From Bdellovibrionota bacterium (GTDB lineage: Bacteria > Bdellovibrionota_C > UBA2361 > JAAYZI01), in assembly GCA_050950765.1 (NCBI GenBank), contig JBMNIF010000002.1:256001-320000 (forward strand): DNA of 64,000 nucleotides, written 5' to 3'. Made by a program: the position numbers and the translations under genes. Positions 1,788-64,000 of the stretch are shown piece by piece. A model generated the notes under the pieces. The model was given only the letters and a program-made list of their open reading frames with translations. It ran no database searches and had not been told where the DNA came from. The first letter of the stretch is position 1, and each line of letters opens with the position of its first letter.

Positions 1788-2663
1788 TTAAGCTGCTGCT
1801 TGTGCTTGAACGGCAGCAGATCTGGCAGCACGCACCTGTAAAATTTTTTGTGAGCGGGGTTTTCTACGATGAATCTGACGACATTCCAAGATATCACTAT
1901 CATCTTCACCCTCTAAAGGTTTGAAATTCTCTTGAAATATAAGACACATCTCGCGCTGCAATGTTTCTAAAGCTTTTCTTTTCACCCTTGAAATATGGCA
2001 TCGGCTATAACCGAGAGAAACCGCTATATCGATCAGCCTTCGTCCTTGAATGTAGAGTTGAAAAATTACTTCCTGCTCCAACTTATCTAACTTTTTACAA
2101 ACTGAAGTGCTGACCTTTACTAACTCTTTTTTTAATAAAATCTGATCTGGAGTTTCGTTTTCTTTACCGGAAAGTGACTCAACAGCATCAATGGCATCAA
2201 TGACACCTAATGCTCCTCCATATTTACTACTATTATAAAATCTCTCTTCTTCGTTATTTAAAATCGAAATAATATTTCCGTTAGCTGCACCAGAGATACT
2301 TCTTATCAAATTTCCTCGCAGATGATAGAAAAGAAAAGTTATAAAACAAGCTCCCTTAGCAGGATCGAAGCGTGAAACAGCTTCGCATAAAGATAGATCC
2401 ACCACACTATGAAGTTCATCATCATCTAATCTGGAATGCCATTTTTTAAGTATGCTACGCGCTAACTTACGTGCCTTTAAACGATACTCCAAAACCATTT
2501 TTTTGTTTTCGTGCGTTGTCCTTATTCCACAAAGTCCATTTAAAACAGCAACCTTTTTATTTGTCTTAGCCACACTACTTAAGCGCTCGGCATCAGCCAT
2601 TGTCATCTTCAACTTACAACTTTTGACTTCTGACATTACTTCCCCAACTTGCAGCACAACCAC
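1788..2663 (-). CDS. Sigma-70 family, FliA/WhiG-like alternative sigma factor
   Basis: Region 2 (LCEAVSRFDPAKGACFITFLFYHLRG) and region 4 HTH (LDKLEQEVIFQLYIQGRRLIDIAVSLGYSRCHISRVKRKAL). Confidence 0.85.
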   Translation of the reverse strand: MVVLQVGEVMSEVKSCKLKMTMADAERLSSVAKTNKKVAVLNGLCGIRTTHENKKMVLEYRLKARKLARSILKKWHSRLDDDELHSVVDLSLCEAVSRFDPAKGACFITFLFYHLRGNLIRSISGAANGNIISILNNEEERFYNSSKYGGALGVIDAIDAVESLSGKENETPDQILLKKELVKVSTSVCKKLDKLEQEVIFQLYIQGRRLIDIAVSLGYSRCHISRVKRKALETLQREMCLIFQENFKPLEGEDDSDILECRQIHRRKPRSQKILQVRAARSAAVQAQAAA

Positions 2664-2676
2664 TTAAAAACTATTT

Positions 2677-2958
2677 TTAATGATCTTCAAGCTGATAAGC
2701 TCTGATTACATCCTCAACGCCTGTCACAACATCAAGGCAATACGCTTGAATCATCAAACGTGAGTTTGATTCCATAATGCGATCACACTCTTGTAATATG
2801 GGCGCAATTTTACTGGCGATCTCTGCTCTTAAAATTTTAGCAATAGGATTCTTAACAGCAGAAGCTTCGGACCCAACAACTTCCAACTCTTCCATACGAC
2901 CCTCACAAAAAAAACCAAACACATCCTCTACTCTGTCAAAATAAAAAGTTCGCTTCAT
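2677..2958 (-). CDS. Small hypothetical protein co-transcribed with sigma factor (start may be ATG 2895)
   Basis: ORF 13 bp upstream of the sigma gene on the same strand; no recognised motif. Confidence 0.5.
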   Translation of the reverse strand: MKRTFYFDRVEDVFGFFCEGRMEELEVVGSEASAVKNPIAKILRAEIASKIAPILQECDRIMESNSRLMIQAYCLDVVTGVEDVIRAYQLEDH

Positions 2959-3095
2959 TATTTTTATAAATATTTGCTAACTACCTATAAATAGTTGTTA
3001 TTTTATTGATAATTTTTGCTCCTTTTTGAAGCGTTGTAACATCTACTTTAATTGTTACTAGAATTAGCCAGCTAAGGCTAAGAACAGGTTAGATT

Positions 3096-3890
3096 ATGGG
3101 AAAAGAAGAAGATACGCAGGAAACAGTCCTCTCCATTGAAGAGGCAAATGACTTAATCCTTGAACATCGTGGCTGGGCAGAGAGTATTGCTAAGTCTGTC
3201 GCCCGTTCTTGGAATCTGGATTGGCAGTTAGATGGATTGGATGGTGCTGCTATGGAGGCACTTATTTTTTGTGCACGTAGATTTGATCCTGCTCGGGGTG
3301 TGCCCTTTAAAGGTTATGCTAGAAAACGTATTCATGAAGCAGCGACAGAAGCCTCTCGTCGTTCAAAAGGTTGGCGACGCGGAGGAAATACTTCCGCTCG
3401 CACAGAACGTTTAGCGCGTGAGGTATCCGTAGAGCTCTTTAACATCTTCCCTGAGTTACATGCGGGGCTACTCCCCTATGCTGGAGATGAAGATGCAGAT
3501 CAAGATACTCGCATCGCCTTACAAAGATTATTGATAGGAGCTTCTGTTATCGCCACGAAACAAGGGATTGAAGCAGCCTTGCCGGATGATGCCCTTGATT
3601 TTAAACGCATGATAGAATCGATCTGTTCTATGGAGCCATTACATCAAACGTTAATCTGGAAAGTATATTGGGAAGGATTTTCATTGCGGAGTGTAGCTGG
3701 AGAGTGGGAAACTGATGAACTAAATGTTATCCGTGAACATAAAGTTATTCTGGATTATCTGCAGAAATTTTTTGGCAAGGGGCGGAATACAAAGTGTCCA
3801 AGGATAAGACCTGGATTAAGGGAGGTTGCGGTAAAATTAAAACGACAAGATAATATGGTAGATTTCAGCCAAATAATGACAAAGGAGTAA
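3096..3890 (+). CDS. Divergent sigma-70 (FliA-like) factor
   Basis: Region 2 (AMEALIFCARRFDPARGVPFKGYARKRI) and a degenerate region 4 (MEPLHQTLIWKVYWEGFSLRSVA). Confidence 0.75.
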   Translation: MGKEEDTQETVLSIEEANDLILEHRGWAESIAKSVARSWNLDWQLDGLDGAAMEALIFCARRFDPARGVPFKGYARKRIHEAATEASRRSKGWRRGGNTSARTERLAREVSVELFNIFPELHAGLLPYAGDEDADQDTRIALQRLLIGASVIATKQGIEAALPDDALDFKRMIESICSMEPLHQTLIWKVYWEGFSLRSVAGEWETDELNVIREHKVILDYLQKFFGKGRNTKCPRIRPGLREVAVKLKRQDNMVDFSQIMTKE

Positions 3891-3896
3891 ACCACG

Positions 3897-4250
3897 ATGT
3901 CCAAGAACTCTAAAGATAAAAGCTCAAAAGTAACGGGAATCAAAGCCCCACGTGTCCCCACTGCCATTGAACAACTCAGTGGAGTTTCAAGTGTTGAAAA
4001 AACGCAGAAAACTTCTGCTATCTCTGCTGTTCACGGACTAAGTGGCACATCTAGAACACATTCTATAAACTCCATTACGGCTGCTAATCGAGAGGTGCTT
4101 CACAAAATGGTTCATGAAGAGGCTGATAAACTTTTCGGGAAGACTCAAACACCGAGTCAGAAACGTGAGGTTATTGAGAAAGCAGTTAAGATGGCGATTG
4201 ATGCAGTTGCTATCGAAGAGGAAAACGATTCTTCCTCCAAAAAGAGCTGA
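3897..4250 (+). CDS. Small hypothetical protein, S/T/K-rich N-terminus, helical C-terminus (possible anti-sigma)
   Basis: 6 bp after the sigma gene, with a GGAG RBS. Confidence 0.6.
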   Translation: MSKNSKDKSSKVTGIKAPRVPTAIEQLSGVSSVEKTQKTSAISAVHGLSGTSRTHSINSITAANREVLHKMVHEEADKLFGKTQTPSQKREVIEKAVKMAIDAVAIEEENDSSSKKS

Positions 4251-4270
4251 TATAATTTTAAAGCAACTTG

Positions 4271-4309
4271 AGATAGAGCTCTATCTTTAAGAGCAACGCC
4301 GTCGCTCTT
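4271..4309. terminator. Hairpins between convergent genes
   Basis: Perfect 16-bp palindrome AGATAGAGCTCTATCT, then the stem-loop AAGAGCAAC-GCC-GTCGCTCTT. Confidence 0.45.
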
Positions 4310-4323
4310 GAACAAAGCACAAC

Positions 4324-4785
4324 TTATGCGCGCGACTGATAACGGGCTAGCTGCATCCGATGAAAACGGAGCGCATTAGGCGACTCGATGCTGCCACTCT
4401 CTATCTTATCACTTACCTCCCCCAGATAGGTACCAGCAGCGTTGTAGTCACCATTCGATAACAGACTAGCTACAAAGAAAAGAATAACTTCAATTGAATC
4501 AGGACTTAAACGATAGGCCTGATTTGCCGCTTGCAACGCTAAATCATTATTACCATTTTGCAAATATATACAGGTCAATCCCATCCAAGATGGAGCGAAA
4601 TCAGGCGCAACATTAACTAACCCTAACAAGATCGCTTCAGCACGATGCACATCTCCGTTCTCAAGACAGAACCTACCCAATTCGTAAATACTCACCACCT
4701 CCTGCGCTGAATATCCCCCTCGCTTTGTACAGTTTTGCAGATATTTTTCACGATAGATCTCTCTGGTATTACGTCTAAAGTTCAC
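4324..4785 (-). CDS. TPR protein, SycD/LcrH- or YscY-like T3SS chaperone
   Basis: YSAQEVVSIYELGRFCLENGDVHRAEAILLGLVNVAPDFAPSWMGL TPR pattern; GTG 4785 overlaps the upstream TGA; T3SS context. Confidence 0.65.
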   Translation of the reverse strand: MNFRRNTREIYREKYLQNCTKRGGYSAQEVVSIYELGRFCLENGDVHRAEAILLGLVNVAPDFAPSWMGLTCIYLQNGNNDLALQAANQAYRLSPDSIEVILFFVASLLSNGDYNAAGTYLGEVSDKIESGSIESPNALRFHRMQLARYQSRA

Positions 4786-5039
4786 TTTTTCCCCTCTATA
4801 CTGATAGACAACCAATCAAGCACATGCTTAAGCATCGCCTCTTCTGCTAATATTTTTCTGTAATCATCAGAATCAACGGCACCAGCGAAACCCTTCTTCA
4901 TCAGATTTACTTTTTCATACCGTGCAAACATAGAGTTCGACATCTGTTCAAGATCGCTGACAGAACCCAAAACAGGAAGAAGTGCAAGAAAGGGAGATAT
5001 CGAAAAGTTATCCGGCGCTGAATATTTTGATTTTTCCAT
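4782..5039 (-). CDS. Small hypothetical protein coupled to TPR chaperone
   Basis: 85 aa; GTGA stop/start overlap with the TPR gene. Confidence 0.55.
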   Translation of the reverse strand: MEKSKYSAPDNFSISPFLALLPVLGSVSDLEQMSNSMFARYEKVNLMKKGFAGAVDSDDYRKILAEEAMLKHVLDWLSISIEGKK

Positions 5040-5145
5040 AACAACTACTTACATAAAGGTAGGACAAGCAAAGTTTATTTTAACAACCATTTTATATTTC
5101 TGCCAATCCTAAATAATATCTAAACAAACAGGATAAAATACGCGC

Positions 5146-5772
5146 CTACTCCATCTCTCGTTCCAACTCCTCTCTGGACATCCTATTTTTAAATAAAAAG
5201 AGATACTTTGCACCTAGTAAAGAAGCGCATACTAAACACAACGCTAAAGTAGCAAGAATAGGTAAAGCGCTTTGCATTAAATGGGACGGAATAAAAATTC
5301 CTGTTTCCGCTCGAGTAGTGAGCATCTTTTTTATAATGCCGACACCTACTAAAAAAACTCCGTATGTTACACCACAAAGGCACACGATTTCTAAACAATC
5401 TCTAATAAACAGCCGCAAAATCTCTGTTAAAGAAAATGTTTTTTCAAAAGGATTGACTCTCTGCATTGTCGGCACAATAAAGTTAAGGCGAAAAAGAAAC
5501 TTTACTTGAAACAATATAGACAATATTACAGAAAAAAATACTACTAACGCCGGAAATAACAATAATTCAACAAAAGTCCAAACCTTCTCTCTTGCAGCCG
5601 TTAAGGTGTTTGGAGGTGAAAATATCTGCATTAAATCTCCACGGATCCAAAAAAAATATCCGCACAGTGCCATAAAAATAAGGCAAGTAGTAGCAAAGTG
5701 AGAATAAGAAGTGATTCCACTTTCCCTTAAATTTTCAAGTTTTCTCTCTGTGGGCCATTCTTCTTTAAGCAT
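5146..5772 (-). CDS. SctU/FlhB-family export protein, membrane domain only
   Basis: EEWPTERKLENLRESG N-terminus, QRVNPF motif, 4 TM segments; ends at KNRMSREELEREME with no NPTH domain. Confidence 0.8.
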   Translation of the reverse strand: MLKEEWPTERKLENLRESGITSYSHFATTCLIFMALCGYFFWIRGDLMQIFSPPNTLTAAREKVWTFVELLLFPALVVFFSVILSILFQVKFLFRLNFIVPTMQRVNPFEKTFSLTEILRLFIRDCLEIVCLCGVTYGVFLVGVGIIKKMLTTRAETGIFIPSHLMQSALPILATLALCLVCASLLGAKYLFLFKNRMSREELEREME

Positions 5773-5784
5773 CTGCCACCTATT

Positions 5785-6408
5785 TTACTGATCGGACGTA
5801 ATATTTTTCTGCACAATTTCTGTAAAGCGTTCCGAATTCGGAGCTAAATTTTCTACAAAAAATGTTGCTATCGTATGGATAAACACCGTTAACAATAAAC
5901 AGACGAGTGTTGGACGCAACGCCGTAAAAGGTACAAACACTCGACTACGTAAAGCTCTACTAATCCACAAAAAAGGTAACTCAACTAACCAAAGCAAAAA
6001 GATAATACCTAAAGCCACAACAGATCCACACAAGCAAGCGCCATTTATTATTGCTATCAAGATTAACAATTGTTGTGGAAAAGTTGCAGCTGCTAAGGCT
6101 GCCTCTACAAAAGTAAGCGCCATATCGGAAGAAAACGCAAAATAGCAAGCACCACCAAAGATAACAGTGTGCAAGATCTGTTTATTACCGTTCTCCCAAG
6201 TAATATTATCTAAGAGAAGAGCGGTAACATAAGCAGAGAAAGGAACTGCTGCTAAAAATGTCATAAGTAATATGTAGCTACAAAGCGATAAGTCGATAGA
6301 CAATGCACTAAAAAAAACGCACCCTGCAAATACTATGGCTAACAGTCCGCTCCACCAACCTGAGCACATAATAGAGAATAATAAGAATATAGCAGCACAA
6401 AATATCAT
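5785..6408 (-). CDS. Divergent SctT/FliR-like export membrane protein
   Basis: Multi-TM; lies between SctS and SctU; C-terminal VFVPFTALRPTLVCLLL resembles the FliR C-terminus. Confidence 0.55.
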   Translation of the reverse strand: MIFCAAIFLLFSIMCSGWWSGLLAIVFAGCVFFSALSIDLSLCSYILLMTFLAAVPFSAYVTALLLDNITWENGNKQILHTVIFGGACYFAFSSDMALTFVEAALAAATFPQQLLILIAIINGACLCGSVVALGIIFLLWLVELPFLWISRALRSRVFVPFTALRPTLVCLLLTVFIHTIATFFVENLAPNSERFTEIVQKNITSDQ

Positions 6409-6422
6409 TACTTAAACACTTT

Positions 6423-6662
6423 TTAACTCAAGCTCTTTGTCGCCAAATCCATAATCCAACTTACAACAGGGCTACACAAAAAATATAAGATTACCAAAAC
6501 AGTGATAAGTCGTAGTGCATAACTCGCACTTTGCTCTTGAACACTCGTGGCTGCCATTAAGGTTGAGGCGATAGTACCAACTAAAAGAACACCGATTATT
6601 AACGGGAAATTTATTAAGAAAAGTATCCTCAAAGCTTCCTGAATCAATTCATGAACTTCCAT
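6423..6662 (-). CDS. SctS/FliQ export protein
   Basis: PLIIGVLLVGTIASTLMAATSVQEQSASYALRL matches the FliQ QAxTQxQEQTL pattern. Confidence 0.85.
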   Translation of the reverse strand: MEVHELIQEALRILFLINFPLIIGVLLVGTIASTLMAATSVQEQSASYALRLITVLVILYFLCSPVVSWIMDLATKSLS

Positions 6663-6677
6663 AAGCCCCTCTTTCGT

Positions 6678-7313
6678 TTAGAGATAACCTGAGATTAATT
6701 TTTCTGAAAGTAACTGCCAACCATCAATGGCAAAAAAGAGTAAGACTTTCAGAGGTAGCGCCACAAAGTTATGTTGTATATTGGTAGCCCCTAACAGCAA
6801 CAAAACATTAGCCACAATCAGATCAAGCACAAAGAAAGGGATTAGTAACAAGAAACCGATCTTAAAAGCTTCTTTTACTTCTGTAAAAAGATAACTCGTC
6901 ACTAGGACAGCAAAGGTAGTATCAGAAGTAAGGGTTACCTCTGCTGTTCCTCCGCTTTGATCTGTAACCTCCGAGCCTTTTACGCCCTTTAATTTTTTTG
7001 CCAACTCGGTAAAACGTTCTAACGTTTTTGGCTCCGTATACTTTGTAAGAATTGGAGAGTATTTCTGATCCATTTCTGAAATACTTTTTAAAGGGGTAGT
7101 AAACAACTTCTCCAAACCACCAACGCCTTCAAGTTGCGGCGCAAGGATCATCATAGAGAGAGCAAAAGAGATAATGACCAATACTAACCCCACTCCGCTA
7201 CCATAAAACCCCAAGCCATAACGTAAAATGCTAAATGTCGTTACGCACTTGACGAAGGCACTAAAAAAGAAGATGACGATGATAGCTATAAGATACGGTT
7301 GTAGTGTTTCCAT
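6678..7313 (-). CDS. SctR/FliP export protein
   Basis: FVKCVTTFSILRYGLG; TEVKEAFKIGFLLLIPFFVLDLIVANVLL; LPLKVLLFFAIDGW; no FliP signal peptide, which is SctR-like. Confidence 0.9.
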   Translation of the reverse strand: METLQPYLIAIIVIFFFSAFVKCVTTFSILRYGLGFYGSGVGLVLVIISFALSMMILAPQLEGVGGLEKLFTTPLKSISEMDQKYSPILTKYTEPKTLERFTELAKKLKGVKGSEVTDQSGGTAEVTLTSDTTFAVLVTSYLFTEVKEAFKIGFLLLIPFFVLDLIVANVLLLLGATNIQHNFVALPLKVLLFFAIDGWQLLSEKLISGYL

Positions 7314-7445
7314 GAAATGGGATTATAGAAAAGATGATCCTAGTTTGACCAGTCCTAATATCGACACTCTTCAACAATAAAAATGCACCTAATTATGTTT
7401 TAATATACCTGACAACGAAGCAGGCTCCTGCTTCATATTAGAACT

Positions 7446-8474
7446 TTAACAGACGCTAATAACTAAGCTCCCTTGATAGGAGCGTAAAATAGCCTCTCCC
7501 ACTTTTTCGTTATTAACCACAATGGAAACCTTATCACTAACACGGATATTCGTATCAAAGGATGCTCCAACCTGTGCGACTTCAGCAGTCATCCCCGGTA
7601 CAAGTTGTGTTATACCGAATTCAAACGAAAGTTTCGTAGCACCTGCAGGTATTTTAACGGACGGAGGTGTTGTCGCCACAGTTTCTACTACAAAATTATT
7701 ATTAACGATCCCTAAGCGTGCTGGTAACCACGCCTTGTCATTAGCAATTAACGTTACGGAATCAGAAACTGGTATCTCAATATCATAAAAGACACCCGAC
7801 TTTAAGTATTCAGATAACATGGCAGGTGGTACAGTCAGATGCCCCACCTCTACTCTAACATTTGTTGGAGCAATTTTCGTCCCGATAGTTGAATGCAGCT
7901 GCCTACGCCACAATCCATCCATTTTCTCGAGCATAATCTTGCCCATCGTGATCCAGATAGTGATAGGTGTGCCGTTTACGTTTAACTGTAATTTAACGCC
8001 TCCGATCCCCCTGACAGAATGCGGATCTATATCGGATTCGAACTTGACAAGAGAAGACTCCGGCCCCGTCCATGATAACGCCAAACTTGAGATAAGGCGC
8101 ATCGCCAAATACTCCAAAACAACCTCCCTTGCTTTATTGCGAGCTCCAAGGATGATCATTTCAAGTAATGCCACAGCTGAATCATCTTCTAAAAAAACAC
8201 ACATCGGTTCATCATCGATCGATCCAGTAAAACCGTATTGAAAATTATGATTGCCACCGATAAAAGGTTTTGTCTCGACTAGAGAAAACTCCACTCCTAG
8301 TGAATGCGCTAATGGCTGCCACTGCATAGCAAAACCTGGAAACCATTTTTCTGGAGAACACCGCAAAAAACCGCAGGAATAACGCACCTCCAACGGATCA
8401 TATCTCCGCAGCAGCTTATTCGGCTTCCATGGATTCAATTTAACTTGATTATTACCCTGCGCACTATCTTGCAA
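7446..8474 (-). CDS. SctQ/FliM-like C-ring protein with SPOA-like C-terminal domains
   Basis: C-terminal KVSIVVNNEKVGEAILRSYQGSLVISV resembles SpoA; directly upstream of sctR. Confidence 0.6.
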   Translation of the reverse strand: MQDSAQGNNQVKLNPWKPNKLLRRYDPLEVRYSCGFLRCSPEKWFPGFAMQWQPLAHSLGVEFSLVETKPFIGGNHNFQYGFTGSIDDEPMCVFLEDDSAVALLEMIILGARNKAREVVLEYLAMRLISSLALSWTGPESSLVKFESDIDPHSVRGIGGVKLQLNVNGTPITIWITMGKIMLEKMDGLWRRQLHSTIGTKIAPTNVRVEVGHLTVPPAMLSEYLKSGVFYDIEIPVSDSVTLIANDKAWLPARLGIVNNNFVVETVATTPPSVKIPAGATKLSFEFGITQLVPGMTAEVAQVGASFDTNIRVSDKVSIVVNNEKVGEAILRSYQGSLVISVC

Positions 8475-8491
8475 TTTTTAAATCCCTTTTA

Positions 8492-8722
8492 CTATTCTAG
8501 CTCACTAAGAGCTGCCCTTAACGCCGTCCCGATAAAAACCATTCGCAATTCTGGCGACTGCGCCGCCAGATCCAAAGCCGCTTTTTGTAAAACTTCACCA
8601 TTAACAGTATCGCTTTTTAAATAAACCGCCGCCTCACGTCCGTCCAGCAAAACAGCCACAGCAACTAAAGCACGTTGTTTAGCTGGCAAAGCCCTGAACC
8701 GTTTTGCATCCGTATAATCCAT
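8492..8722 (-). CDS. Small helical protein between SctJ and SctQ (SctK position; weak FliG-N resemblance)
   Basis: 76 aa with RBS; LPAKQRALVAVAVLLDGREAAVYLK. Confidence 0.55.
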   Translation of the reverse strand: MDYTDAKRFRALPAKQRALVAVAVLLDGREAAVYLKSDTVNGEVLQKAALDLAAQSPELRMVFIGTALRAALSELE

Positions 8723-8737
8723 AGGATAAATCCTTTA

Positions 8738-9598
8738 CTAAACGACACTTTTCAGATCTGATTCATTTGAGTCAATATCATTACCATTTTTCTTGCGTAC
8801 ACTATATCTAAAATTAGCAAGTAGATAACCCAAAGTAGCACAAATAAATCCACTTAATAAAACTGCCGCAAAAAAGGTCATTATTAAACCGTATTGATCC
8901 CCCTCTACAACGTTCCAAAAGAGTAAGGAAACTAGAGGCACCTTTACGATCTCTCCGTTTTTAAGAGTAACTCCATTTACCAAAACTTCCGTCTCTTCTT
9001 GTACGGTCGAGATAACTTTTACTTTTTCCAGCGGGATATTCGGAAGAACCAGCTGCACGAGTTGCTCAATATCTTCCTGACTAAGAGCATCTTCTTTGCG
9101 CAACCGAACAATGATGGCAGCACCCTCTGAATCTGCCATCACAGACCTCTGTCTGACTATGGCTTTAGCCGAAATCACACCGGCATGGTTACTGAACAGA
9201 TCCTCAATCTGCACAGCCAGTGCTCTATCTGCACGCAGAGCTTCGATCTCTTTCGAATTCGAAGAAAGAAACCCACCTTGAGAAGAGAGGTATTTTAAAG
9301 AGGGATCCTCTTCTTCCGGCAAACCGTTATTATCCAAGATCTGTACAGCTTCTAAATATTTATTATGCTTAACCAAAACATGATAACCGTCAGACGATTT
9401 TCGTCCGCTCTTTTCAGCCGTAGCAGGGATGCCTTGAGCGCTCAAGACTGCAATGATTCTATTCGCCTGTTTATGCGAAAGCCCTTCGCCTGTAACTGAA
9501 ACCTCATTACAGGCGCAGAGGAAGAACGCCATCAACGGCAATAGAATATAGCGTACAGAATTTAATTTCATTATCATAAACCCGCTTTTACTTTTCAC
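8738..9598 (-). CDS. SctJ/YscJ/PrgK inner-membrane ring lipoprotein
   Basis: Lipobox FFLCAC; GLSHKQANRIIAVLSAQGI; AVQILDNNGLP; GVISAKA; C-terminal TM. Confidence 0.85.
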   Translation of the reverse strand: MKSKSGFMIMKLNSVRYILLPLMAFFLCACNEVSVTGEGLSHKQANRIIAVLSAQGIPATAEKSGRKSSDGYHVLVKHNKYLEAVQILDNNGLPEEEDPSLKYLSSQGGFLSSNSKEIEALRADRALAVQIEDLFSNHAGVISAKAIVRQRSVMADSEGAAIIVRLRKEDALSQEDIEQLVQLVLPNIPLEKVKVISTVQEETEVLVNGVTLKNGEIVKVPLVSLLFWNVVEGDQYGLIMTFFAAVLLSGFICATLGYLLANFRYSVRKKNGNDIDSNESDLKSVV

Positions 9599-11003
9599 CT
9601 ACATAAGGGATAAGTGTTACAAGAAATTCGACATCACCAAAGCGTACCCAGTCGCCATTTTCCAAAATGACGAGCTCCTCTTCTTTCTGATACGTATTCT
9701 CTCCACGTCGTCTGACGAAAATACCCCTATCACTCATCAGATCGTGCAATCTTAAGCCGTCTTCCGTACTAACCATCACCATGGCGTGCGGTGTAGAGAT
9801 GCTTTCATCCTCAAGGATTAAATCCGTACCTTTCAAGCTGGTACGCGTAATAAAAAACTTCCCTTCGCGTAGCTCGATCCCCTCTCCCGACGGAGTATTA
9901 TAACTGACAAACCAACCAAACAATCTACCCTTTTTAGAAGGTGCACGTTGCGGTGTCTGATCTTTTTTCTGAAATGGAGCATTCTGCTTCCTATCTTTAC
10001 CTTGTTGTGAAACGTTTTTCTGTTGTTTCTCTCTTCTTTCAAAACGTTTCTTTTCTTCACTTTCATTTTCTTCATACCTAGCAACGCTCTCTTTTTCAGA
10101 AGCACCTGACCTGCCTTCCTTTCTTGACTGTTGTTCAGATCTTTGTTGCTTATCAGGATTTGAGCTCCTATTATCTCTACGTCGTCTAGCTGAACGGGAC
10201 GTTCTCTCTGGCGTTTGTTGAACCTCTGCCGCTATCTCAGGAATTTCAAATTCAACATCTTCCACAACGCTTTCTTGAGACGACACTACATCTTCAATCT
10301 CTTCAGAGCTATCATCCCCAAGATCTTCAACAGTGACCTCTTCCTCTTCTTCTCCAACATTAAAATCGAAAGGTCCTACAAGCCCCCCTTCTACTTCATT
10401 AACTTCATAATTCACCACTTCTTCAGCACTATCATCCTCAACGGCAGACGCGGTTTCTACAAAACCACTTTCAGGATCTGATCTTACCTCAGAGACAACT
10501 CCACCGTAATCAAATCTGGTTTCAACATCTTCCACCTCTCTCGGTTCAAAATCAGCATATCCTTCGGGTTCTTTTGACTCTTCCTCTTGAGCGCCTGCAA
10601 ATTGAGGTGTTTCATCTTCAGCACCTATCGCTACGATACTATCATCTTCCATCTCCCCTTCTGAATCATCAGGGATTTCAACCTCCAGCTCTTCAATATA
10701 AGCACTAAGGGGATCATCCAACTGCATGGGGTCATCATTACTTACATCAGCCACCTGCTGAGTAGCACTGGCCACTTCATCTTCTCTGATTCGATCTCTG
10801 GTTTGTTCTAATTCTGCATCTCCCGCTGTGGACATCGTACGTTGTCGCACCCTAGCGGAAGGTTTCTGCGCAGGCTCCTCCGGTCGTTCGGAAGCAGAAT
10901 CTAAACTCGCTCCGCACATCCGACAACGAGTTGAGACTGCCGGTATTAAACTTCGACAAGATGGACATCTCACAAAGGTCAACTCATTATTATCTGTAGC
11001 CAT
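9588..11003 (-). CDS. Zinc-ribbon, long acidic linker, C-terminal FHA-like domain protein
   Basis: CPSC...CRMC; E/D-rich middle; ILEDESISTPHA...DLMSDRG...GDWVRFG. Confidence 0.75.
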   Translation of the reverse strand: MATDNNELTFVRCPSCRSLIPAVSTRCRMCGASLDSASERPEEPAQKPSARVRQRTMSTAGDAELEQTRDRIREDEVASATQQVADVSNDDPMQLDDPLSAYIEELEVEIPDDSEGEMEDDSIVAIGAEDETPQFAGAQEEESKEPEGYADFEPREVEDVETRFDYGGVVSEVRSDPESGFVETASAVEDDSAEEVVNYEVNEVEGGLVGPFDFNVGEEEEEVTVEDLGDDSSEEIEDVVSSQESVVEDVEFEIPEIAAEVQQTPERTSRSARRRRDNRSSNPDKQQRSEQQSRKEGRSGASEKESVARYEENESEEKKRFERREKQQKNVSQQGKDRKQNAPFQKKDQTPQRAPSKKGRLFGWFVSYNTPSGEGIELREGKFFITRTSLKGTDLILEDESISTPHAMVMVSTEDGLRLHDLMSDRGIFVRRRGENTYQKEEELVILENGDWVRFGDVEFLVTLIPYVGEK

Positions 11004-11042
11004 AATATCACTCCCTTTTTACTCAAAAAAAAACATACTTAT

Positions 11043-12434
11043 TTAAAATATTGCTCCACATAAAATAAACAATAAGAATATTAACAACGCATTGAGCAGT
11101 ATCATTATAAAAATGAACAACGCTTTTTTCGGCAGCGACAAAGCATTAAAGTACCGCTCCAAATCTTCTATTTTAACGAACCCTCTACCCGTGTTAAGCA
11201 TACTTTCCACCGTGTTTCTTGATACACGCGCACGTTGCATTTGTGGTGGTTGCAGAGAAGTCTCTTCCATAAAGCTTTCTGTTAATCCAACCTGCTTCTT
11301 TGTTTTTTCGACCTTAACTTCATTTTCTACAAAAGCATCTGCCGAACCGTTAGCATTCTTAAACTTCTCTTCCTGTTCTTTATTAAAACAGATCGCCACC
11401 GTTAAATTACCACCGAAGTTTAAAACTTTGGCTTCACCATCAAGCTCTAAAGTATGACCTTTCTTTAAGATACCGCCGTCATAAACGGTTCCGTTAGTGC
11501 TGGAATCTTCGACTGTCGTTATACCTGTCTGACTAAGAGAAACTGTACAGTGCCGCCTTGAAACGTGCGGAGCTCCTAACCACAGATCGCTACTAGGCTC
11601 TCTACCGATAGTGACACTTCCATCAACCGGCAAAACCAAACGTGCTGGTCTAGCCACCTCAGACATCGATAATAAGATCGGGTACCTTTGCAACGATTGT
11701 TGCGGAGCAACTTTTTCCACTTCCTTGTTGATGATTTTTTCCAAACCATCTTGAGAAACTACACCGTATATCGAAGTTTGCCCCCCTAAAAAGATAGGTA
11801 CATTTGGTTCTACATTAACACGCCCTGAGATCTGTTGATTGTGTACAAAAGTTCCGTTTGTTGAACCGAGATCTTCGATCCAAAACCTTCCTTCTTCAAA
11901 ACCTATACGTGCATGCTTGCCCGAGATATCCGCACCATCAAGTCGTACCGCACATTTATTAGAGCGCCCAATATAAGCTGGTTGATCTGGTGAAAAAGAA
12001 ACGACTATCGGAGAGGCTCCTGCTACAACAACAGCTGGGAACTCCGGAGTATCTAAAGCACAAGCCTGCCGCAATATCCGCACTCCAGCACGGTCTGGTG
12101 GTTCTCCTGCTTTTACCGCTAAGTCGGGATCCAATGAAGTCACTGTTAATTGCAGATTAGCAAGTTTTAATGAAGTAGATCCGTTAATCGCTCCATGCGG
12201 TATTTCAGGGATAGCGTTGATGTCGTTTGAATTTACCTTATCTAGCGTTTCAAGCTTGCAACGAAACTTTCTTCCGACACACTTCGTCAAACGGAGTTGA
12301 TAATTAAGATCTTTCATATCTTCTATATCAACGTGTGCTTCTTCAGAAGCACCGATCAAGGCTTGTGGACGACGCACAAGTATCATCATGGTTTGGGATA
12401 AGCCATCTTGAAAAGCTATTTCAAGAGCGAACAT
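11043..12434 (-). CDS. Tandem FHA-domain protein with C-terminal TM (SctD/CdsD-like cytoplasmic part)
   Basis: IGRS...ISGKHA...DLGSTNGT and IGRE...VSRRHC...DSSTNGT; terminal hydrophobic helix. Confidence 0.8.
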   Translation of the reverse strand: MFALEIAFQDGLSQTMMILVRRPQALIGASEEAHVDIEDMKDLNYQLRLTKCVGRKFRCKLETLDKVNSNDINAIPEIPHGAINGSTSLKLANLQLTVTSLDPDLAVKAGEPPDRAGVRILRQACALDTPEFPAVVVAGASPIVVSFSPDQPAYIGRSNKCAVRLDGADISGKHARIGFEEGRFWIEDLGSTNGTFVHNQQISGRVNVEPNVPIFLGGQTSIYGVVSQDGLEKIINKEVEKVAPQQSLQRYPILLSMSEVARPARLVLPVDGSVTIGREPSSDLWLGAPHVSRRHCTVSLSQTGITTVEDSSTNGTVYDGGILKKGHTLELDGEAKVLNFGGNLTVAICFNKEQEEKFKNANGSADAFVENEVKVEKTKKQVGLTESFMEETSLQPPQMQRARVSRNTVESMLNTGRGFVKIEDLERYFNALSLPKKALFIFIMILLNALLIFLLFILCGAIF

Positions 12435-12892: not shown

Positions 12893-13258
12893 ATGGACAC
12901 ACCAGCAACTATCTTGATTGTCGACGATGATGTAACAGCACTCGACATTGTTGATTACCTCTTTGAAGATAAAGGCTTTGAAGTAGTACGCAGAGCCGAT
13001 GGTCAATCTGCTATTGATTGTGTTGAAGAGATCAATCCGAATATCATTTTAGTGGATCTTATGATGCCGCGCCTAAGTGGTCAGGAAACTGTCCGGCAGA
13101 TGCGTGCTAAAGGTATTACCGTTCCTGTTGTGGCATTTACTGCCATAGATAATCCGGAGATTCATCAGGAGGCACTTGATGCAGGTTGCAATCTGGTGTT
13201 AACAAAACCGTGTCGTCCTAATATCTTAGTGAAACACATCGAAGATCTGTTACAATAA
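12893..13258 (+). CDS. Stand-alone receiver-domain response regulator
   Basis: ILIVDDD, ILVDLMMP, AFTA, TKP. Confidence 0.9.
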   Translation: MDTPATILIVDDDVTALDIVDYLFEDKGFEVVRRADGQSAIDCVEEINPNIILVDLMMPRLSGQETVRQMRAKGITVPVVAFTAIDNPEIHQEALDAGCNLVLTKPCRPNILVKHIEDLLQ

Positions 13259-26035: not shown

Positions 26036-26872
26036 CTATTTTGCTATTTTTAAAACTTTATCTTGAACTCGTTCCCAAGCGAGATCTAACTGATAATCGA
26101 TCTCCCCTGCTGAGGTCTCCACAATACAACCAGCTTTAATCGTTGGATCGGCCACAAATTGCCAGTTTTCTTGAAATCCCTTAACTGAATTGCCGACTCC
26201 AACAAGGTTGATAAATTCAAAATCCTGAGGACTAACTCGAATAGTTTTTACTTCTGCCGTTCCTCCCAATGCCACCGCTTTATTGATAATATCAACGATG
26301 TATTCGGGGTTAATTTCAACAGCATCATCAATAATTTTCTTTGAGATAGCGAGCGCTAGGTCAAGAGTTTGCCTCTCGATAGTTTTTAGATTTTCTTCTA
26401 TCTGTTTTTGAATATCAGAGAAAACTTCCTGCATTTTCTGTTTATAGATCTCATCCTGCTCCTGCAACTTTGCATTCATTTCAGCAGAAGCTACGGCATA
26501 ACCTTCATCATATGCCTCTTTTTTAACACCTTCTAACTCTGCTTCAGTTAAGGTTGTTGTCACTATTTCAGGTTCTTTACTCTTTTCTTCTTCGTCGTGT
26601 TTTTGATACGCCAACTCCTTTGGTAAATGCCAACGCACTTTTGATTCTATTGGAGGGAGACCACCGAAGTCTTCAAACATCGGATCCACTATTCCCTCAG
26701 ACCCTGCGACAACATCAAACTGAGTCGGCAAAAAATCTTCCGACAAATGCACTTCTCCGATCACTGGCCAAGAAGCATCTTGATACTCCGTCGGTTGATA
26801 GGTCGTTTGAGTAAGACTAAGATCCACTAAGTCTTCTTGTTCCTGTATTTGCTCTGATTCTTGATGATCCAC
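26036..26872 (-). CDS. fliH: Flagellar assembly protein FliH
   Basis: AYDEGY, LALAISKKII, IRVSPQD, DPTIKAGCIVETSAGEID. Confidence 0.85.
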   Translation of the reverse strand: MDHQESEQIQEQEDLVDLSLTQTTYQPTEYQDASWPVIGEVHLSEDFLPTQFDVVAGSEGIVDPMFEDFGGLPPIESKVRWHLPKELAYQKHDEEEKSKEPEIVTTTLTEAELEGVKKEAYDEGYAVASAEMNAKLQEQDEIYKQKMQEVFSDIQKQIEENLKTIERQTLDLALAISKKIIDDAVEINPEYIVDIINKAVALGGTAEVKTIRVSPQDFEFINLVGVGNSVKGFQENWQFVADPTIKAGCIVETSAGEIDYQLDLAWERVQDKVLKIAK

Positions 26873-26928
26873 GTAATGTTCTCCGATTAGATATTTCGTT
26901 TCAAAAGCAGATCTTTACTTACAAAAAT

Positions 26929-28581
26929 TTACATTCTTCCATCATTTAACCAATAACGGATCAAGAGTGCCGCCTGTTCTGGATTCTCTTTAACCATCTT
27001 CGAGTTTTCAGCCATAATTTCATTTAACTGATCCATATCAACACGTTGTTCAATTTCAGGAATCTTCGTGCGTTGTCTTTCCGCCTCAAGCTCAGCTTCC
27101 AACTCTGCAATACCCGTAGGTAACAAACGTGTTAAATCGATCTCCGCCTCAGTCGGTGTAGTCAGGTAGTTAATAAACGGTTTAATAACAATAACTAAAA
27201 ATCCGAAAAAAAGTAGTAGCGGAACTACATACGGCAAGATCCTATTTGCCCAATGCCACCACTGTTCACTACTGCTCCAAACCTCTTCAAAGTCCACAGG
27301 TTTTGTAGAGAACGGTACATTTTCAACTGTCACAACATCACCGCGGGAAGCATCATAACCAACGGCACTTTTTACCAATGATTCAATCTGTGCCAACATC
27401 CCCTCATCTAACGGTTTATAAACAGTCTTGATATTTTGACCTGCGGCATCAGTGACGTTTTCATAATTACCGTCAACACCTACTGCTACTGAAAGATTAA
27501 TCAATCTGCCGCGTGGTGCCGATACTTTTGTCACAGCACGTGAAACTTCATAATTTTTTAACATCTCTTTTTGTGATGATTTACTTTCATCAGATCCAGG
27601 AGGTGTAATTAGATCTGGATCATTACTAAGATTTGAAATCACACCTGGAATCCCGCCACGTTGTGAAAAGCCCGTTCCACGTTCTATACTTCTTTCCGAA
27701 CGTACGACTTGACCACCTGGATCGTAGATTTCTTCTTCTCTTTCATTAGCAGAGAAATCCAAATTCGCTGTAACACGTGCAATGATTTTTTCAGGACCAA
27801 GCACCTTCGACAACATCTGTTCTATCTGACGCACATAGCCCTTTTCTAAAGCAGTTTTGTATTGTAAGCGTGTGGCTTCTGCTACAAGCCCCTCCTCTTC
27901 ATCTTCATCAGGTGTGAGGAGATTCCCGTACATATCAACGATGGTCACATTCTCAGGAAGCAGCCCCTCAATAGAACCCGCTACAAGATTGGTAATACCT
28001 TTTATCTGTTTTTTTCCCAACTCAACACCTGGACGTAATGTTAACATTACAGAGGCGGTTGTCTGATTCTCTTTCTTTGAAAAAACCGACTTTTCAGGTT
28101 TGGCGATAGCTACTCGTGCTGAATTAACTGCATCCATAGCCTCAATTGTTCGTTGTAATTCACCTTGCACGGCACGAGTCCAACGGATCTTCTCTTCAAA
28201 TGTGGTGGTTCCTAAATTAGTCACATCAAAGAGTTCAAAACCTACCTTGCCTCCTTTCGGCACACCTTCAGCCGCAAGTGAGATTCTCAATTCATGTACG
28301 GCTTCCGGTGGAGTGATTGCGATCGTACCGCCATCTCCACGAATCTGATAAGCTATCTTCTGTTCCTTTAAGCGCTCAATAACTGCAGCAGAATCTGCCG
28401 GACCTAAATCTGTAAAAAGCACGGCATAACCAGGACGACTAGCGATATTTGAAACGAATACAATCCCCGCCACAGAACCTATAATCAGTAACGGATAGAT
28501 TATTTTTTGCAAAAGCGGCATCTTGAGATACCCCTCAAAAGCCTTTCCTAATGCTGCTCCTAAATCAATTTTCCCTGCCAC
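26929..28581 (-). CDS. fliF: Flagellar M-ring protein FliF
   Basis: VGFELFD, RAVQGELQRTI, ASVML, NYEVSR, AVGYDASRGD, C-terminal NPEQAALLIRYWL. Confidence 0.93.
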   Translation of the reverse strand: MAGKIDLGAALGKAFEGYLKMPLLQKIIYPLLIIGSVAGIVFVSNIASRPGYAVLFTDLGPADSAAVIERLKEQKIAYQIRGDGGTIAITPPEAVHELRISLAAEGVPKGGKVGFELFDVTNLGTTTFEEKIRWTRAVQGELQRTIEAMDAVNSARVAIAKPEKSVFSKKENQTTASVMLTLRPGVELGKKQIKGITNLVAGSIEGLLPENVTIVDMYGNLLTPDEDEEEGLVAEATRLQYKTALEKGYVRQIEQMLSKVLGPEKIIARVTANLDFSANEREEEIYDPGGQVVRSERSIERGTGFSQRGGIPGVISNLSNDPDLITPPGSDESKSSQKEMLKNYEVSRAVTKVSAPRGRLINLSVAVGVDGNYENVTDAAGQNIKTVYKPLDEGMLAQIESLVKSAVGYDASRGDVVTVENVPFSTKPVDFEEVWSSSEQWWHWANRILPYVVPLLLFFGFLVIVIKPFINYLTTPTEAEIDLTRLLPTGIAELEAELEAERQRTKIPEIEQRVDMDQLNEIMAENSKMVKENPEQAALLIRYWLNDGRM

Positions 28582-30377: not shown

Positions 30378-31367
30378 ATGGATACTAATTTACAAGAACT
30401 GGGAGAAGAGGTCGCACGCAAAAACCCTTTGCTACAACAGATCAAAACAGAGATCGGCAAAGTGGTGATCGGACAAGAACAACTAATAGAACGTTTAATA
30501 ATATCTTTATTGTGCAATCAACACGTTCTGATTGAGGGGTTACCTGGCTTAGCAAAAACTCTTTCTGTTACAACACTAGCAAAAACCATTCAAGCAACAT
30601 TCCACCGCTTACAATTTACTCCCGATCTATTACCGGCAGACTTAATCGGCACCCTCGTTTACAATCCGAAAAGTGGTGAGTTTTACACCAAGAAGGGGCC
30701 GATCTTTGCAAATATTATCCTTGCTGATGAAATCAATCGTGCACCTGCCAAGATTCAAAGTGCACTACTTGAAGCGATGCAGGAAAGACAGGTTACTATC
30801 GGAGATGAGAGCTTCCCGTTAGACGATCCCTTTATGGTTTTGGCAACACAAAATCCGATTGAACAGGAAGGAACTTATCCTCTTCCAGAAGCTCAGATTG
30901 ATAGGTTTATGTTTAAGTTGTTAGTTAGTTATCCAAGCAAAGAAGAGGAGCGTAAAATTTTACATACCCGTTCACGCTCTCTACAAGTTGATGATGTTAC
31001 TCCCGTTATCTCAACTACTGAAATCTTACGCCTTAGAGAGATCGTAGATAAGATCTATATCGACGAACGTATTGAAGAGTATATTGTCGAAATAATTGAT
31101 GCCAGTAGACATCCTGAAAAACACGGACTTAACATCTCAAATCTTATCCGTTACGGAGCTTCTCCGCGTGCTACTATTTTTCTAGCATTAGCAGCCAAAG
31201 CTCACGCCTTCTTTAACGGACGTGCCTATGTTGTTCCGCAAGATATAAAAGAGATCGGGTTTGATGTTTTAAGACACCGCATAGCTATTTCTTATGAAGC
31301 AGAGGTAGAGGAGAAATCTTCTCAAGATATTATTAAGCAGATATTTGATACTGTGAAGGTTCCATGA
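30378..31367 (+). CDS. moxR: MoxR family AAA+ ATPase
   Basis: EGLPGLAKT, QFTPDLLPAD, ADEINRAP, ATQNPIEQEGTYPLPEAQ.DRF. Confidence 0.95.
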   Translation: MDTNLQELGEEVARKNPLLQQIKTEIGKVVIGQEQLIERLIISLLCNQHVLIEGLPGLAKTLSVTTLAKTIQATFHRLQFTPDLLPADLIGTLVYNPKSGEFYTKKGPIFANIILADEINRAPAKIQSALLEAMQERQVTIGDESFPLDDPFMVLATQNPIEQEGTYPLPEAQIDRFMFKLLVSYPSKEEERKILHTRSRSLQVDDVTPVISTTEILRLREIVDKIYIDERIEEYIVEIIDASRHPEKHGLNISNLIRYGASPRATIFLALAAKAHAFFNGRAYVVPQDIKEIGFDVLRHRIAISYEAEVEEKSSQDIIKQIFDTVKVP

Positions 31368-34265: not shown

Positions 34266-34358
34266 TCTTATTTGACGTATTTTCTGTTTTGAAAAAACTA
34301 CTTGCAATAAGGTGTTATTATGCTCTTTTTAGAGCGTTATATTAATATTGATACTGTT

Positions 34359-63530: not shown

Positions 63531-64000
63531 ACTTTCCCCTTTTTACGTATGTTAAGTAAGTAACAGTTCGGCTATTTTTAGCTCTGCTTTAGTTTGCTCG
63601 GCTAAATACCAAGAGTCCCCAAGCCTAACTTTTTTAATTTCAGATAACCTTCTGATAGCATCTTCTAATGATATTGAAGTCGAAAGTTTATGTTTTTTTA
63701 TTGTTTTTAATATTTCATAGCTCCACTGTATTGCTATGTGATTCACGAACATCCATCCCTGAAATTTATCATCATCACTCATATATGAAGCATCTGCTTT
63801 TAAAACAGTTTTTAACGTATCAAAAGATTGTTCAATAGATAGTCGCATTTTGTATAACGTGTATATTTCTTCTGCGGATGAGTCCAAATTTGAAAAGAAT
63901 GCAACAGTTCCTAGCCTCACTTTTTTTAAATCAACATCTGTTAAATTGTATTTTTCTGGATGAGATATTGTTAATGAAACTAAGTTATTTTCCTCTTCAC
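63526..64000 (-). mobile_element. IS4-superfamily (IS1634-like) insertion sequence, 3' part; transposase open to window edge (stop at 63552)
   Basis: IYTLYKMRLSIEQSFDTLK (Y-R-E-K motif); frame open from 64000; end-like sequence GGGGAAAGTTTGGG. Confidence 0.75.

Follow-up and report, generated by a model that had tools for sequence, protein, structure and literature searches.

Gene content of the locus

The window, a stretch of 64,000 nucleotides from a Bdellovibrionota-affiliated bacterium (G000:C2:256001-320000; genome of 2.64 Mb in five contigs, 94% complete), carries at positions 1788-12434 a gene run related to type III secretion systems (T3SS). By listing the open reading frames (ORFs), eleven minus-strand ORFs and two sigma factor genes were found, all of them intact. 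This is in agreement with a preliminary description of the locus, as ORFs, Pfam families and coordinates all matched the run that it had outlined, from an FHA protein (FHA2-TM) to a TPR protein, with two sigma genes beside it. On the plus strand, sigma264 and a 117-aa (amino acid) ORF converge on the run, while a 93-aa ORF and sigma291, both on the minus strand, diverge from sigma264.

The first protein of the run, FHA2-TM (11043-12434, minus strand, 463 aa), displayed two FHA stretches (Pfam, 102.8 bits) and a Yop-YscD_cpl match (53.4 bits). The FHA domains were mapped to residues ~147-218 and 264-342, and a single transmembrane (TM) helix at residues 439-457 forms a C-terminal tail anchor. 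Only about six residues follow this helix; the protein is cytoplasmic and has no periplasmic domain. Since nothing lies beyond the TM helix, a periplasmic ring of the SctD type is impossible, and FHA2-TM was ruled out as a full SctD. The following protein, of 471 aa (9588-11003, minus strand), starts with a Zn ribbon (CxxC...CxxC at C13/C16/C27/C30), continues with a long acidic low-complexity linker and ends in a C-terminal FHA domain (26.2 bits). Orthologs were found in the loci of 10 relatives for FHA2-TM and in 11 loci for the Zn-ribbon-FHA protein.

An SctJ-type inner-membrane ring lipoprotein comes next (8738-9598, minus strand; Pfam YscJ_FliF, 41.3 bits; TIGR02544, 76.9 bits against a cut-off of 162), with a lipobox LCAC (C30) and a C-terminal TM helix. 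A 76-aa protein with no family match (8492-8722, minus strand) separates it from an SctQ/FliN-like sorting-platform (C-ring) protein (7446-8474, minus strand; FliMN_C, 27.7 bits, cut-off 23.8), for which orthologs were found in 11 loci. Two export-gate subunits follow on the same strand, SctR (6678-7313; FliP, 112 bits) and SctS (6423-6662; Bac_export_3, 43.5 bits). On NCBIfam, SctR reached 108.6 and 106.7 bits with SctR models and 94.6 bits with FliP, all under the cut-offs. It contains four TM helices, the first from residue 8, and no N-terminal signal-like leader. The lipoprotein SctJ and the signal-less SctR, two features emphasized in the preliminary description, could thus be confirmed.

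The gene in the SctT position (5785-6408, minus strand) encodes a protein of 207 aa with six hydrophobic helices. No Pfam or NCBIfam match was obtained, an hhalign comparison with set-B SctT (see below) gave nothing and a PDB profile search returned 0 matches. The AlphaFold2 model had a predicted local distance difference test score (pLDDT) of 80, and orthologs are merely 15-29% identical. Fold searches with Foldseek and VIA-align gave no clear match, the SctT chains 7agx_1F and 8axk_F appearing at E >1. The SctT previously assigned here is in place as an ORF, and its identity as SctT has neither sequence nor fold support.

The membrane half of SctU (5146-5772, minus strand) covers profile positions 3-219 of 335 (Bac_export_2, 68.2 bits); the gene ends right after the fourth TM helix. 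This truncation is conserved, orthologs being 206-284 aa long. An 85-aa protein of no family (4782-5039, minus strand), conserved in an alignment of 16 sequences, follows; the TPR gene is always next to it. The TPR protein itself (4324-4815, minus strand) was recognised by TPR_19 (37.5 bits) and, under the cut-offs, by the NCBIfam models SctY (29 bits) and LcrH_SycD (19.4 bits), which makes it a candidate T3SS class II or SctY-like chaperone. No meaningful match in PDB, Pfam or Atlas was found for the 85-aa protein, and these searches gave no support for it as the missing SctU C-domain or as a known chaperone client. We regard it as a candidate client of a chaperone or accessory of the gate.

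The 76-aa protein is well conserved (mean column identity of 58% in the alignment) and was modelled by AlphaFold2 as four helices (pLDDT 92.8). The top Foldseek match was FliG_N in 5tdy_B (E 4.7), and the top Atlas structure row was a cluster with FliG_M on 19% of its members. Comparison with the FliG of the same genome gave an hhalign probability of 0.8%, the per-member Pfam scan was empty and the best Z in a wide VIA-align search was 4.5, with unrelated chains. A FliG-like adaptor is possible, as a weak lead only.

The regulatory genes flank the run. Sigma264 (3096-3890, plus strand, 264 aa) is a sigma-70 family protein (Sigma70_r2, 23.1 bits; TIGR02479, 27.4 bits, under cut-off), and the 117-aa gene lies directly downstream on the same strand (3897-4250). 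Sigma291 (1788-2663, minus strand, 291 aa) is of the FliA/SigB/SigF type (regions 2 and 4, 21.4 and 21.6 bits; TIGR02937, 51.8 bits, passing the cut-off of 42.9), and the 93-aa gene, with no family match, lies directly upstream on the same strand (2677-2958). A single-domain response regulator (12893-13258, plus strand; Response_reg, 88.8 bits) is divergent from the FHA2-TM gene, and strong orthologs adjoin that gene in 9/15 loci.

In the NCBIfam ranking, the Sct models stood above the flagellar ones for SctJ, SctR and SctU, and FliQ was slightly ahead for SctS. Every Sct-type protein scored under the equivalog cut-offs; FliP, Bac_export_3 and YscJ_FliF were over the Pfam cut-offs. As had been stated before, no SctC, SctV, SctN or SctL occurs in the window. 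This holds for non-flagellar copies, since the window also contains flagellar genes at 23.3-29.8 kb (FlgB/C-like, FliE, FliF, FliH, FliI and FliJ).

A Tad-like partner cluster carrying SctV

The SctV of the same type (set A) was found on another contig, at C3:603815-605914. The protein of 700 aa scored 594 bits with FHIPEP and 591 bits with TIGR01399 (cut-off 692). It lies in a same-strand cluster of the order PP2C-FHA-kinase-TadZ-RcpC-CpaF-TadB-TadC-SctV-kinase, with two RcpC genes. The FHA protein of the cluster has 350 aa. The upstream kinase is a 522-aa Ser/Thr kinase (Pkinase, 180 bits), and the 814-aa protein encoded after SctV combines a weak kinase domain with a single TM helix and an extended helical region at its C-terminus. 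Judged from its sequence, one of the two Ser/Thr kinases looks like a membrane receptor. A link to phosphothreonine signalling, proposed earlier from the FHA genes of the window, is supported by the FHA proteins of the locus together with the two Ser/Thr kinases and the PP2C phosphatase of its partner. The SctV-kinase pair is directly followed on its strand (C3:594-601 kb) by genes for two proteins of 758 aa and 601 aa that matched neither Pfam nor NCBIfam; these are candidates for cargo or structural parts.

DNA around A-type SctV was taken from 20 relatives of many families, the loci often ending at contig ends. SctV was right behind CpaF-TadB-TadC in 20/20 of them. The 814-aa kinase followed SctV in 18/20, one contig ending there and one locus differing, and TadZ, the 522-aa kinase and the FHA protein were present in 18, 14 and 14 of the 20 loci, respectively. 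In one genome (G002) both clusters form a single same-strand run, read from two joined stretches (L264 and L044): PP2C-FHA-Ser/Thr kinase-TadZ-RcpC-CpaF-TadB-TadC-SctV-Ser/Thr kinase-FHA2TM-ZnFHA-SctJ-76-SctQ-R-S-T-U(N)-85-TPR. A second genome of that family (G033) shows the part from SctV and the kinase through FHA2TM to TPR up to the contig end. Based on this contiguity, the C3 cluster and the window locus belong to a single unit, of which G000 has the two halves at separate places. The association with the Tad genes is thus seen at the level of gene order.

Genome-wide inventory

Family searches detected three genes each for FliP/SctR, FHIPEP (FlhA/SctV) and YscJ/FliF. The FlhB family is represented by one full flagellar gene, two N-terminal halves and two orphan C-terminal domains. 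The genome encodes a flagellum and two non-flagellar sets, A (the window locus and C3) and B (C1 and C5).

On C1, set B comprises sigma-SctJ-75 aa-SctQ-96 aa-SctV-TPR-98 aa, with an FHA protein and two further sigma genes adjoining; the 75-aa protein takes the same place as the 76-aa protein of set A. On C5 the order is SctI-like-300 aa-FliO-like-SctR-S-T-SctU(N)-GAF histidine kinase-SctU(C)-FHA. The SctI-like gene reached 24.3 bits with T3SS_basalb_I, under the cut-off. The C1 arrangement was kept in 12/12 loci and that of C5, including the kinase between the SctU halves, in 7 to 8 of 8 loci. The set-B SctU (G000:C5:48-58 kb) consists of two genes covering profile positions 2-256 and 262-333, a split at about the NPTH autocleavage site. 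The halves are separated by the histidine-kinase gene, of ~1000-1100 aa, and the FHA gene stands after them, an order found again in 7/8 loci of relatives.

A non-flagellar ATPase (SctN, 449 aa) was found at C3:100875-102224 by phmmer with FliI (308 bits); it was missed by PF18269. It belongs to a trio at C3:100225-103327 formed by a FliH/SctL-like protein, the ATPase and an SLT lytic transglycosylase. Orthologs of SctN with 44-54% identity are listed in 27/40 relatives. The earlier impression of a stripped-down system therefore holds for the window and does not extend to the genome, where SctV lies on C3 and the SctL-SctN pair at C3:100225-102224. Upstream of MurJ-SctL-SctN-SLT, HydE/G-like radical SAM proteins, HydF and a TM1266-like regulator form an iron-only hydrogenase maturation set (C3:91-96 kb), which fits an anaerobic lifestyle and digester-type samples.

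Only two secretin genes (PF00263) are present in the genome, one in a GspC/D/E/F/G cluster and the other in a PilM/N/O/Q cluster; by their neighbour genes they are GspD and PilQ. No secretin of the T3SS or Tad kind was detected in the genome. For the needle protein SctF (PF09392) the best E value in the genome was 0.13, and for the periplasmic domain of SctD (PF16693) it was 0.16, both searches having no control genome as positive control. The absence of secretin and needle reported for the window is matched in the whole genome, where family searches detected no T3SS secretin and no needle protein. As an outcome that would speak against it, the preliminary description had named a complete canonical injectisome elsewhere in the genome, the locus being simply split. 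It is indeed split; a canonical injectisome is not encoded elsewhere.

Conservation and range

The gene order of the window locus recurred in the loci of 14 relatives that were examined, incompletely where a locus was rearranged or interrupted by a contig end. The conserved order is a response regulator, then FHA2TM-ZnFHA-J-76-Q-R-S-T-U(N)-85-TPR, then the 117-aa gene with sigma264 and the 93-aa gene with sigma291. Some relatives show a local break between SctQ and SctR. A run of this kind is far beyond chance, and at least 12 families of the order retain its gene order and content, with protein identities of 30-60%.

In a phylum sample of 124 genomes, orthologs of A-type SctV (E <= 1e-125) were found in 79/90 other genomes of the order and in 0/33 genomes from the rest of the sample. 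The genomes of the order measure 1.5-4.8 Mb. When the window SctR was used as a single-protein query against genome contigs, no close relatives were obtained. The nearest named records in the A-type SctV search were metagenome-assembled genomes titled Bdellovibrionota, 'uncultured Bdellovibrionales' and Oligoflexia.

Near-identical locus DNA was present in 15 other runs, which are anaerobic digester, bioreactor, biogas, landfill and wastewater metagenomes; none of the runs listed was of RNA. In two metatranscriptome runs no locus sequence could be placed, which allows no inference on expression either way. Two further runs labelled 'RNA-Seq', with scattered low-depth pieces of the locus, are probably DNA.

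The sets A and B also persist where other type III genes were not detected. G021 and G032 (family f21) and G019 have A- and B-type SctV and no flagellar FlhA match, and for G021 and G032 no flagellar FlhA or FliP match was listed; one of these genomes or G040 is only 82% complete.

Phylogenetic position

The search with the A-type SctV alignment gave 600 candidate stretches, of which 584 were confirmed and the best 80 kept. NCBIfam results for SctV/FlhA were obtained for 61 of 78 scanned ORFs, six of those with no match being due to ORF problems. The Bdellovibrionota-type proteins scored 521-579 bits with SctV (cut-off 692) and 472-534 bits with FlhA (cut-off 772). Among the 44 other proteins with any match, 43 passed the SctV cut-off and one (L087, 656 bits) failed.

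In an IQ-TREE analysis of SctV/FlhA (62 rows, LG+G4, quick search), flagellar FlhA, including that of the order itself, of five proteobacteria and of some Myxococcota, was set apart with a Shimodaira-Hasegawa-like approximate likelihood ratio test (SH-aLRT) support of 100. The non-flagellar clade of 47 rows includes 10 rows of A and 8 rows of B, both sets being monophyletic with a support of 100, and the FastTree runs gave the same main split. Both sets join four Myxococcota SctV on long branches and one Pseudomonas row (SH-aLRT 92); this deep placement is weak and may be due to long-branch attraction. The quick SctR tree (41 rows, C20 posterior mean site frequency model) likewise set the FliP of the order apart, at 100, from named SctR, B and A; within it, A is a clade supported at 100 with a very long stem of 3.0 changes per site.

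The preliminary description had considered the locus non-flagellar, and had named as the contrary outcome that SctR and its companions fall within the flagellar clade as the only copies of the genome. Each gate gene is present three times, and SctR and the partner SctV branch off from the FliP and FlhA of the order at an SH-aLRT of 100, so that the contrary outcome can be set aside. On these trees, both sets are non-flagellar by descent.

SctV-like genes of Myxococcota were found in 65/121 sampled genomes (1e-60), the best being only 36-38% identical. In many of them (loci L227-L242) the membrane domain is 45-55% identical to that of set A and the C-terminal domain has diverged. Ser/Thr-kinase or FHA-like genes stand beside the Myxococcota SctV in 5/16 loci, where ORF calls are unreliable owing to high GC.

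Sigma factors and the candidate anti-sigma factor

The sigma genes matched Pfam sigma-70 region 2, or regions 2 and 4, just below the cut-offs, and FliA/WhiG were among their best specific NCBIfam matches, far below cut-off. Sigma264 is the best-conserved protein of the locus (55-61% identity to its orthologs) and is nearest to the FliA/WhiG group.

The alignment of the 117-aa protein showed a disordered Gly/Ser-rich N-terminal half and a conserved helical C-terminal half. When residues 50-117 were co-folded with sigma264, scores of 0.78, 0.73 and 0.67 were obtained (median 0.73), as compared to 0.00, 0.00 and 0.01 for three controls; these scores may partly reflect sigma/anti-sigma complexes learned by the predictor. 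A mark of 0.73 was reached by 116/157 solved complexes and by 2/215 mismatched pairs. At least 73% of the contacts agreed between the runs, and the pLDDT of the partner was at least 67. The model suggests that the 117-aa protein probably binds sigma264 as an anti-sigma factor. The 93-aa protein, with phmmer orthologs in 4/15 loci, is a possible second partner, that of sigma291.

Other genes of the window

Apart from the T3SS-like locus and the flagellar genes, the window contains ordinary genes. In the flagellar operon (26036-28581), FliH comes directly after FliF, and FliG is not encoded between the two. A single FliG gene (333 aa) occurs in the genome, at G000:C1:5209-6210, ~11 kb from the set-B SctJ-Q-V sublocus. 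A standard operon of the Bat/aerotolerance type occupies 30378-35381 (plus strand), with a MoxR AAA ATPase, DUF58/VWA, a BatD-like protein and two BatA/VWA proteins. At 60771-63530 (minus strand) a protein of 919 aa with ~12 RCC1 repeats and a MopE-type metal-binding motif is encoded, and a DDE transposase fragment (63552-63920) adjoins its gene.

Comparison with known systems

In Myxococcus, a T3SS* with no secretin, needle or translocon is described as acting in the killing and lysis of prey together with the Tad-like Kil system, by which it is recruited (PMC12075869, Herrou et al. 2025), and the Kil genes are described as rich in FHA domains (PMC8460266, Seef et al. 2021). Abby and Rocha (PMC3459982) found the 'Myxo' loci at the base of the non-flagellar systems and reported 'long' and 'short' non-flagellar loci for Myxococcus. 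A 2025 review states that the co-occurrence of Kil and T3SS* is apparently restricted to Cystobacterineae (PMC12428579), and T3SS* was inferred in Bradymonadia in 2024 (PMC11509652). The likeness to secretin-less systems of Myxococcales that had been suspected for the locus is supported. Set A has a non-flagellar gate, ring and platform, secretin, needle and translocon were not detected, a Tad-like partner is present, here by gene order, and FHA proteins occur near the Tad-like genes. As in Myxococcus, two distinct non-flagellar sets occur in one genome.

There are also clear differences. Here the core genes of the Tad-like cluster end with SctV, both clusters being fused in G002, and the ATPase lies outside both loci, a single one for two sets. 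SctU is split or truncated, and a periplasmic part is missing from the SctD-like protein. In the stretch scanned, the Tad-like cluster has no secretin or pilin. The present system also includes a PP2C phosphatase, Ser/Thr kinases and sigma factors of its own, and it belongs to a flagellated lineage affiliated with Bdellovibrionota and found in anaerobic digesters. The Myxococcus systems were compared with set A by their published description and not by named sequences. Thiery et al. reportedly described in 2022 a 'needle-less' T3SS* of Myxococcus xanthus (mxan_2434-2464) that works with the Tad-like Kil.

With canonical injectisomes (Ysc, SPI-1), set A shares homologous SctJ, Q, R, S, U and V, and its SctV and SctR branch with injectisome sequences. 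In contrast to them, SctC, SctF, the translocon and the SctD ring were not detected, the locus is split and the scores are below equivalog cut-offs.

In Pseudomonas aeruginosa, the H1 type VI secretion system (H1-T6SS) is controlled by the threonine-phosphorylation pathway PpkA/PppA/Fha1 (cited in PMC8460266). In the present case, too, the secretion machine is encoded together with an FHA protein, a PP2C phosphatase and a Ser/Thr kinase of the receptor type, and by analogy this suggests a post-translational, contact-triggered activation. The machine differs in being T3SS-like and Tad-like, and its control is predicted from the genes. In the flagellar FliA/FlgM checkpoint, the anti-sigma factor FlgM is removed by type III export. 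Set A resembles it in having a sigma-28-like gene by a type III gate and a small neighbour with a disordered N-terminal half that is predicted to bind the sigma factor. The 117-aa protein has no sequence similarity to FlgM, and the sigma factors stay under the cut-offs of the FliA models.

What distinguishes the present system is the set of the sctV-Tad fusion, built-in kinase, phosphatase and FHA proteins with a sigma/candidate anti-sigma pair, a split or truncated SctU, a ring-less SctD-like protein, a single unlinked ATPase and two sets beside a flagellum. In a 2024 comparative genomics study of Bdellovibrionota, the terms 'type III', 'T3SS', 'Tad' and 'FHA' do not occur (PMC11656739). A literature search, which did not cover supplements, found no description of a type III-like system in this bacterial group.

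Proposed function

The window locus is best explained as the larger half of set A, a needle-less T3SS-like export machine joined with a Tad/Kil-like module, under Ser/Thr-phosphorylation control and with a sigma/candidate anti-sigma pair; we consider this reading reasonably probable. Set A provides inner-membrane and cytoplasmic parts only, namely SctR, SctS, a probable SctT, the membrane half of SctU, SctV, the SctJ ring and the SctQ platform. Its gene content, its division over two loci, its conservation throughout the order and its gene-order fusion with the Tad-like and kinase genes are direct observations, as is its non-flagellar ancestry. The single non-flagellar SctL/SctN ATPase of the genome possibly serves this set.

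A course of events can be proposed from the genes. The receptor kinase would read a surface or contact signal, and the resulting phosphothreonine marks would recruit the three FHA proteins, one of them tail-anchored in the membrane. Through these, the joint Tad-like/T3SS-like machine may be assembled or activated. Its gate would export proteins across the inner membrane, and the Tad-like module would give a way outward or contact, as proposed for Kil/T3SS* of Myxococcus. Expression would be driven by the two dedicated sigma-28-like factors, and the 117-aa candidate may itself be exported, like FlgM. A role in cell-cell attack would be in line with the Myxococcus systems.

Several observations weigh against this proposal. 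No pilin, prepilin peptidase or secretin was found in the stretch of the Tad-like cluster that was scanned, and because of this a route outward is not evident. The NPTH autocleaving switch domain of SctU is absent from the locus. An unlinked FlhB-C-like gene of 94 aa at C3:236788, with clear orthologs in 13/24 relatives, is only a candidate for the partner that would supply it. As SctT, the 207-aa protein is assigned by position and topology only. There is one non-flagellar ATPase for two gate sets, linked to neither, and it would have to serve both if it serves either; in G021, G032 and G040 no T3SS-type ATPase was found at 1e-60 yet set A is present. In some genomes, such as these three, gate sets may thus persist with no dedicated ATPase at all.

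The regulatory part meets comparable objections. For the 117-aa protein, neither a per-member Pfam scan (E <= 10) nor a PDB profile search returned FlgM or an anti-sigma family, so that membership of the FlgM family has no sequence support, and the predicted complex has to be read with the reservation given above. A search for a shared promoter motif upstream of the FHA2-TM gene in 10 loci gave best 12-mers of 80 against 78-81 in shuffles. Sites resembling GCCGATAA numbered 56 in the window, with 43.6 expected, and none of them was placed upstream of the operon. As regards the wider setting, the deep placement with Myxococcota is weak, the compared sequences include no named Myxococcus xanthus sequence, and predation is not known for this lineage, whose DNA comes from anaerobic digester-type samples.

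Alternative explanations

The machine might instead be a regulatory checkpoint, whose gate exports only its own anti-sigma factor or factors and so couples the kinase signal to a sigma-28-like regulon, the Tad-like module being the output. In its favour, two dedicated sigma genes, both paired with a small ORF, are conserved next to the gate genes, and sigma264 exceeds all other proteins of the locus in conservation. The predicted complex with the 117-aa protein (0.73 against 0.01 for the best control) and the failure to detect outer-membrane parts would suit this idea as well, and the FlgM/FliA checkpoint of flagella is known to work likewise. Yet a full gate, ring and platform together with a second complete paralogous set would be a large cost for one regulator, the 117-aa protein shows no similarity to FlgM and a sigma-28-type promoter was not found upstream of the operon. 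We judge a checkpoint of this kind unlikely.

It is quite unlikely that set A assembles some other periplasmic or inner-membrane structure with no role in attack, for instance one like the 'hat-like' complexes related to the flagellar T3SS. Its gene-order fusion is with Tad-like and kinase genes and not with flagellar genes, and A and B persist in genomes that lack flagellar gate genes, so they are not flagellar accessories. The retention of both sets in G021 and G032, for which no flagellar FlhA or FliP match was listed, can also be read in favour of a separate structure, as can the presence of inner-membrane and cytoplasmic parts alone. The genome is flagellated and piliated, and an inner-membrane structure related to the flagellar T3SS has been reported (PMC9380563).

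A scattered canonical injectisome directed at eukaryotes such as protists, with needle, translocon and secretin too diverged for detection, is very unlikely. Scattered loci are reported for Chlamydiae (PMC3459982), needle proteins are small and fast-evolving, and the SctI-like gene of set B, at 24.3 bits under the cut-off, would be in line with such a machine. Secretins, however, are well conserved, and the two of this genome sit in the clusters of the type II secretion system and the type IV pilus. In addition, neither SctF nor the SctD ring domain was found, SctU has no switch domain, and FHA2-TM, ending some six residues past its TM helix, allows no periplasmic ring. Finally, a decaying, non-functional remnant of duplicated flagellar or injectisome genes, which the low scores with curated models, the very long stem of the SctR clade (3.0 changes per site) and the truncated SctU might recall, is disfavoured to the point of being barely credible, given that all ORFs are intact, that order and content are kept over at least 12 families at 30-60% identity and that the SctU truncation is itself conserved (206-284 aa).

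Implications

The reading preferred here, a needle-less export machine joined with a Tad/Kil-like module, bears on the question of how the Tad-like Kil pilus and the needle-less T3SS* work together in Myxococcus. A whole order of a Bdellovibrionota-affiliated phylum carries sctV within a Tad-like cluster, and in one family the Tad-like, kinase/phosphatase/FHA and type III genes form a single co-oriented cluster. This gene-order fusion is therefore independent evidence that the Tad-like and type III machines are one functional unit. The finding also names likely control parts, namely the kinases, the PP2C phosphatase, the FHA proteins and the sigma/anti-sigma pair, and the small genomes of the order (1.5-4.8 Mb) are suited to testing of the Tad/T3SS idea. 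The new deep-branching non-flagellar lineages of SctV and SctR bear on the origin of injectisomes from flagella.

A bolder form of this reading, which we put forward only tentatively, is that of one hybrid machine in which the kinase senses contact, the FHA proteins dock, the gate places proteins in or on a Tad-type fibre, which takes over from needle and secretin, and export of the anti-sigma factor reports completion. If this were true, the Kil/T3SS* partnership, which was genetically inferred in Myxococcus, would be hard-wired as one operon in this order, and the order might preserve an ancestral, pre-injectisome state of non-flagellar type III secretion.

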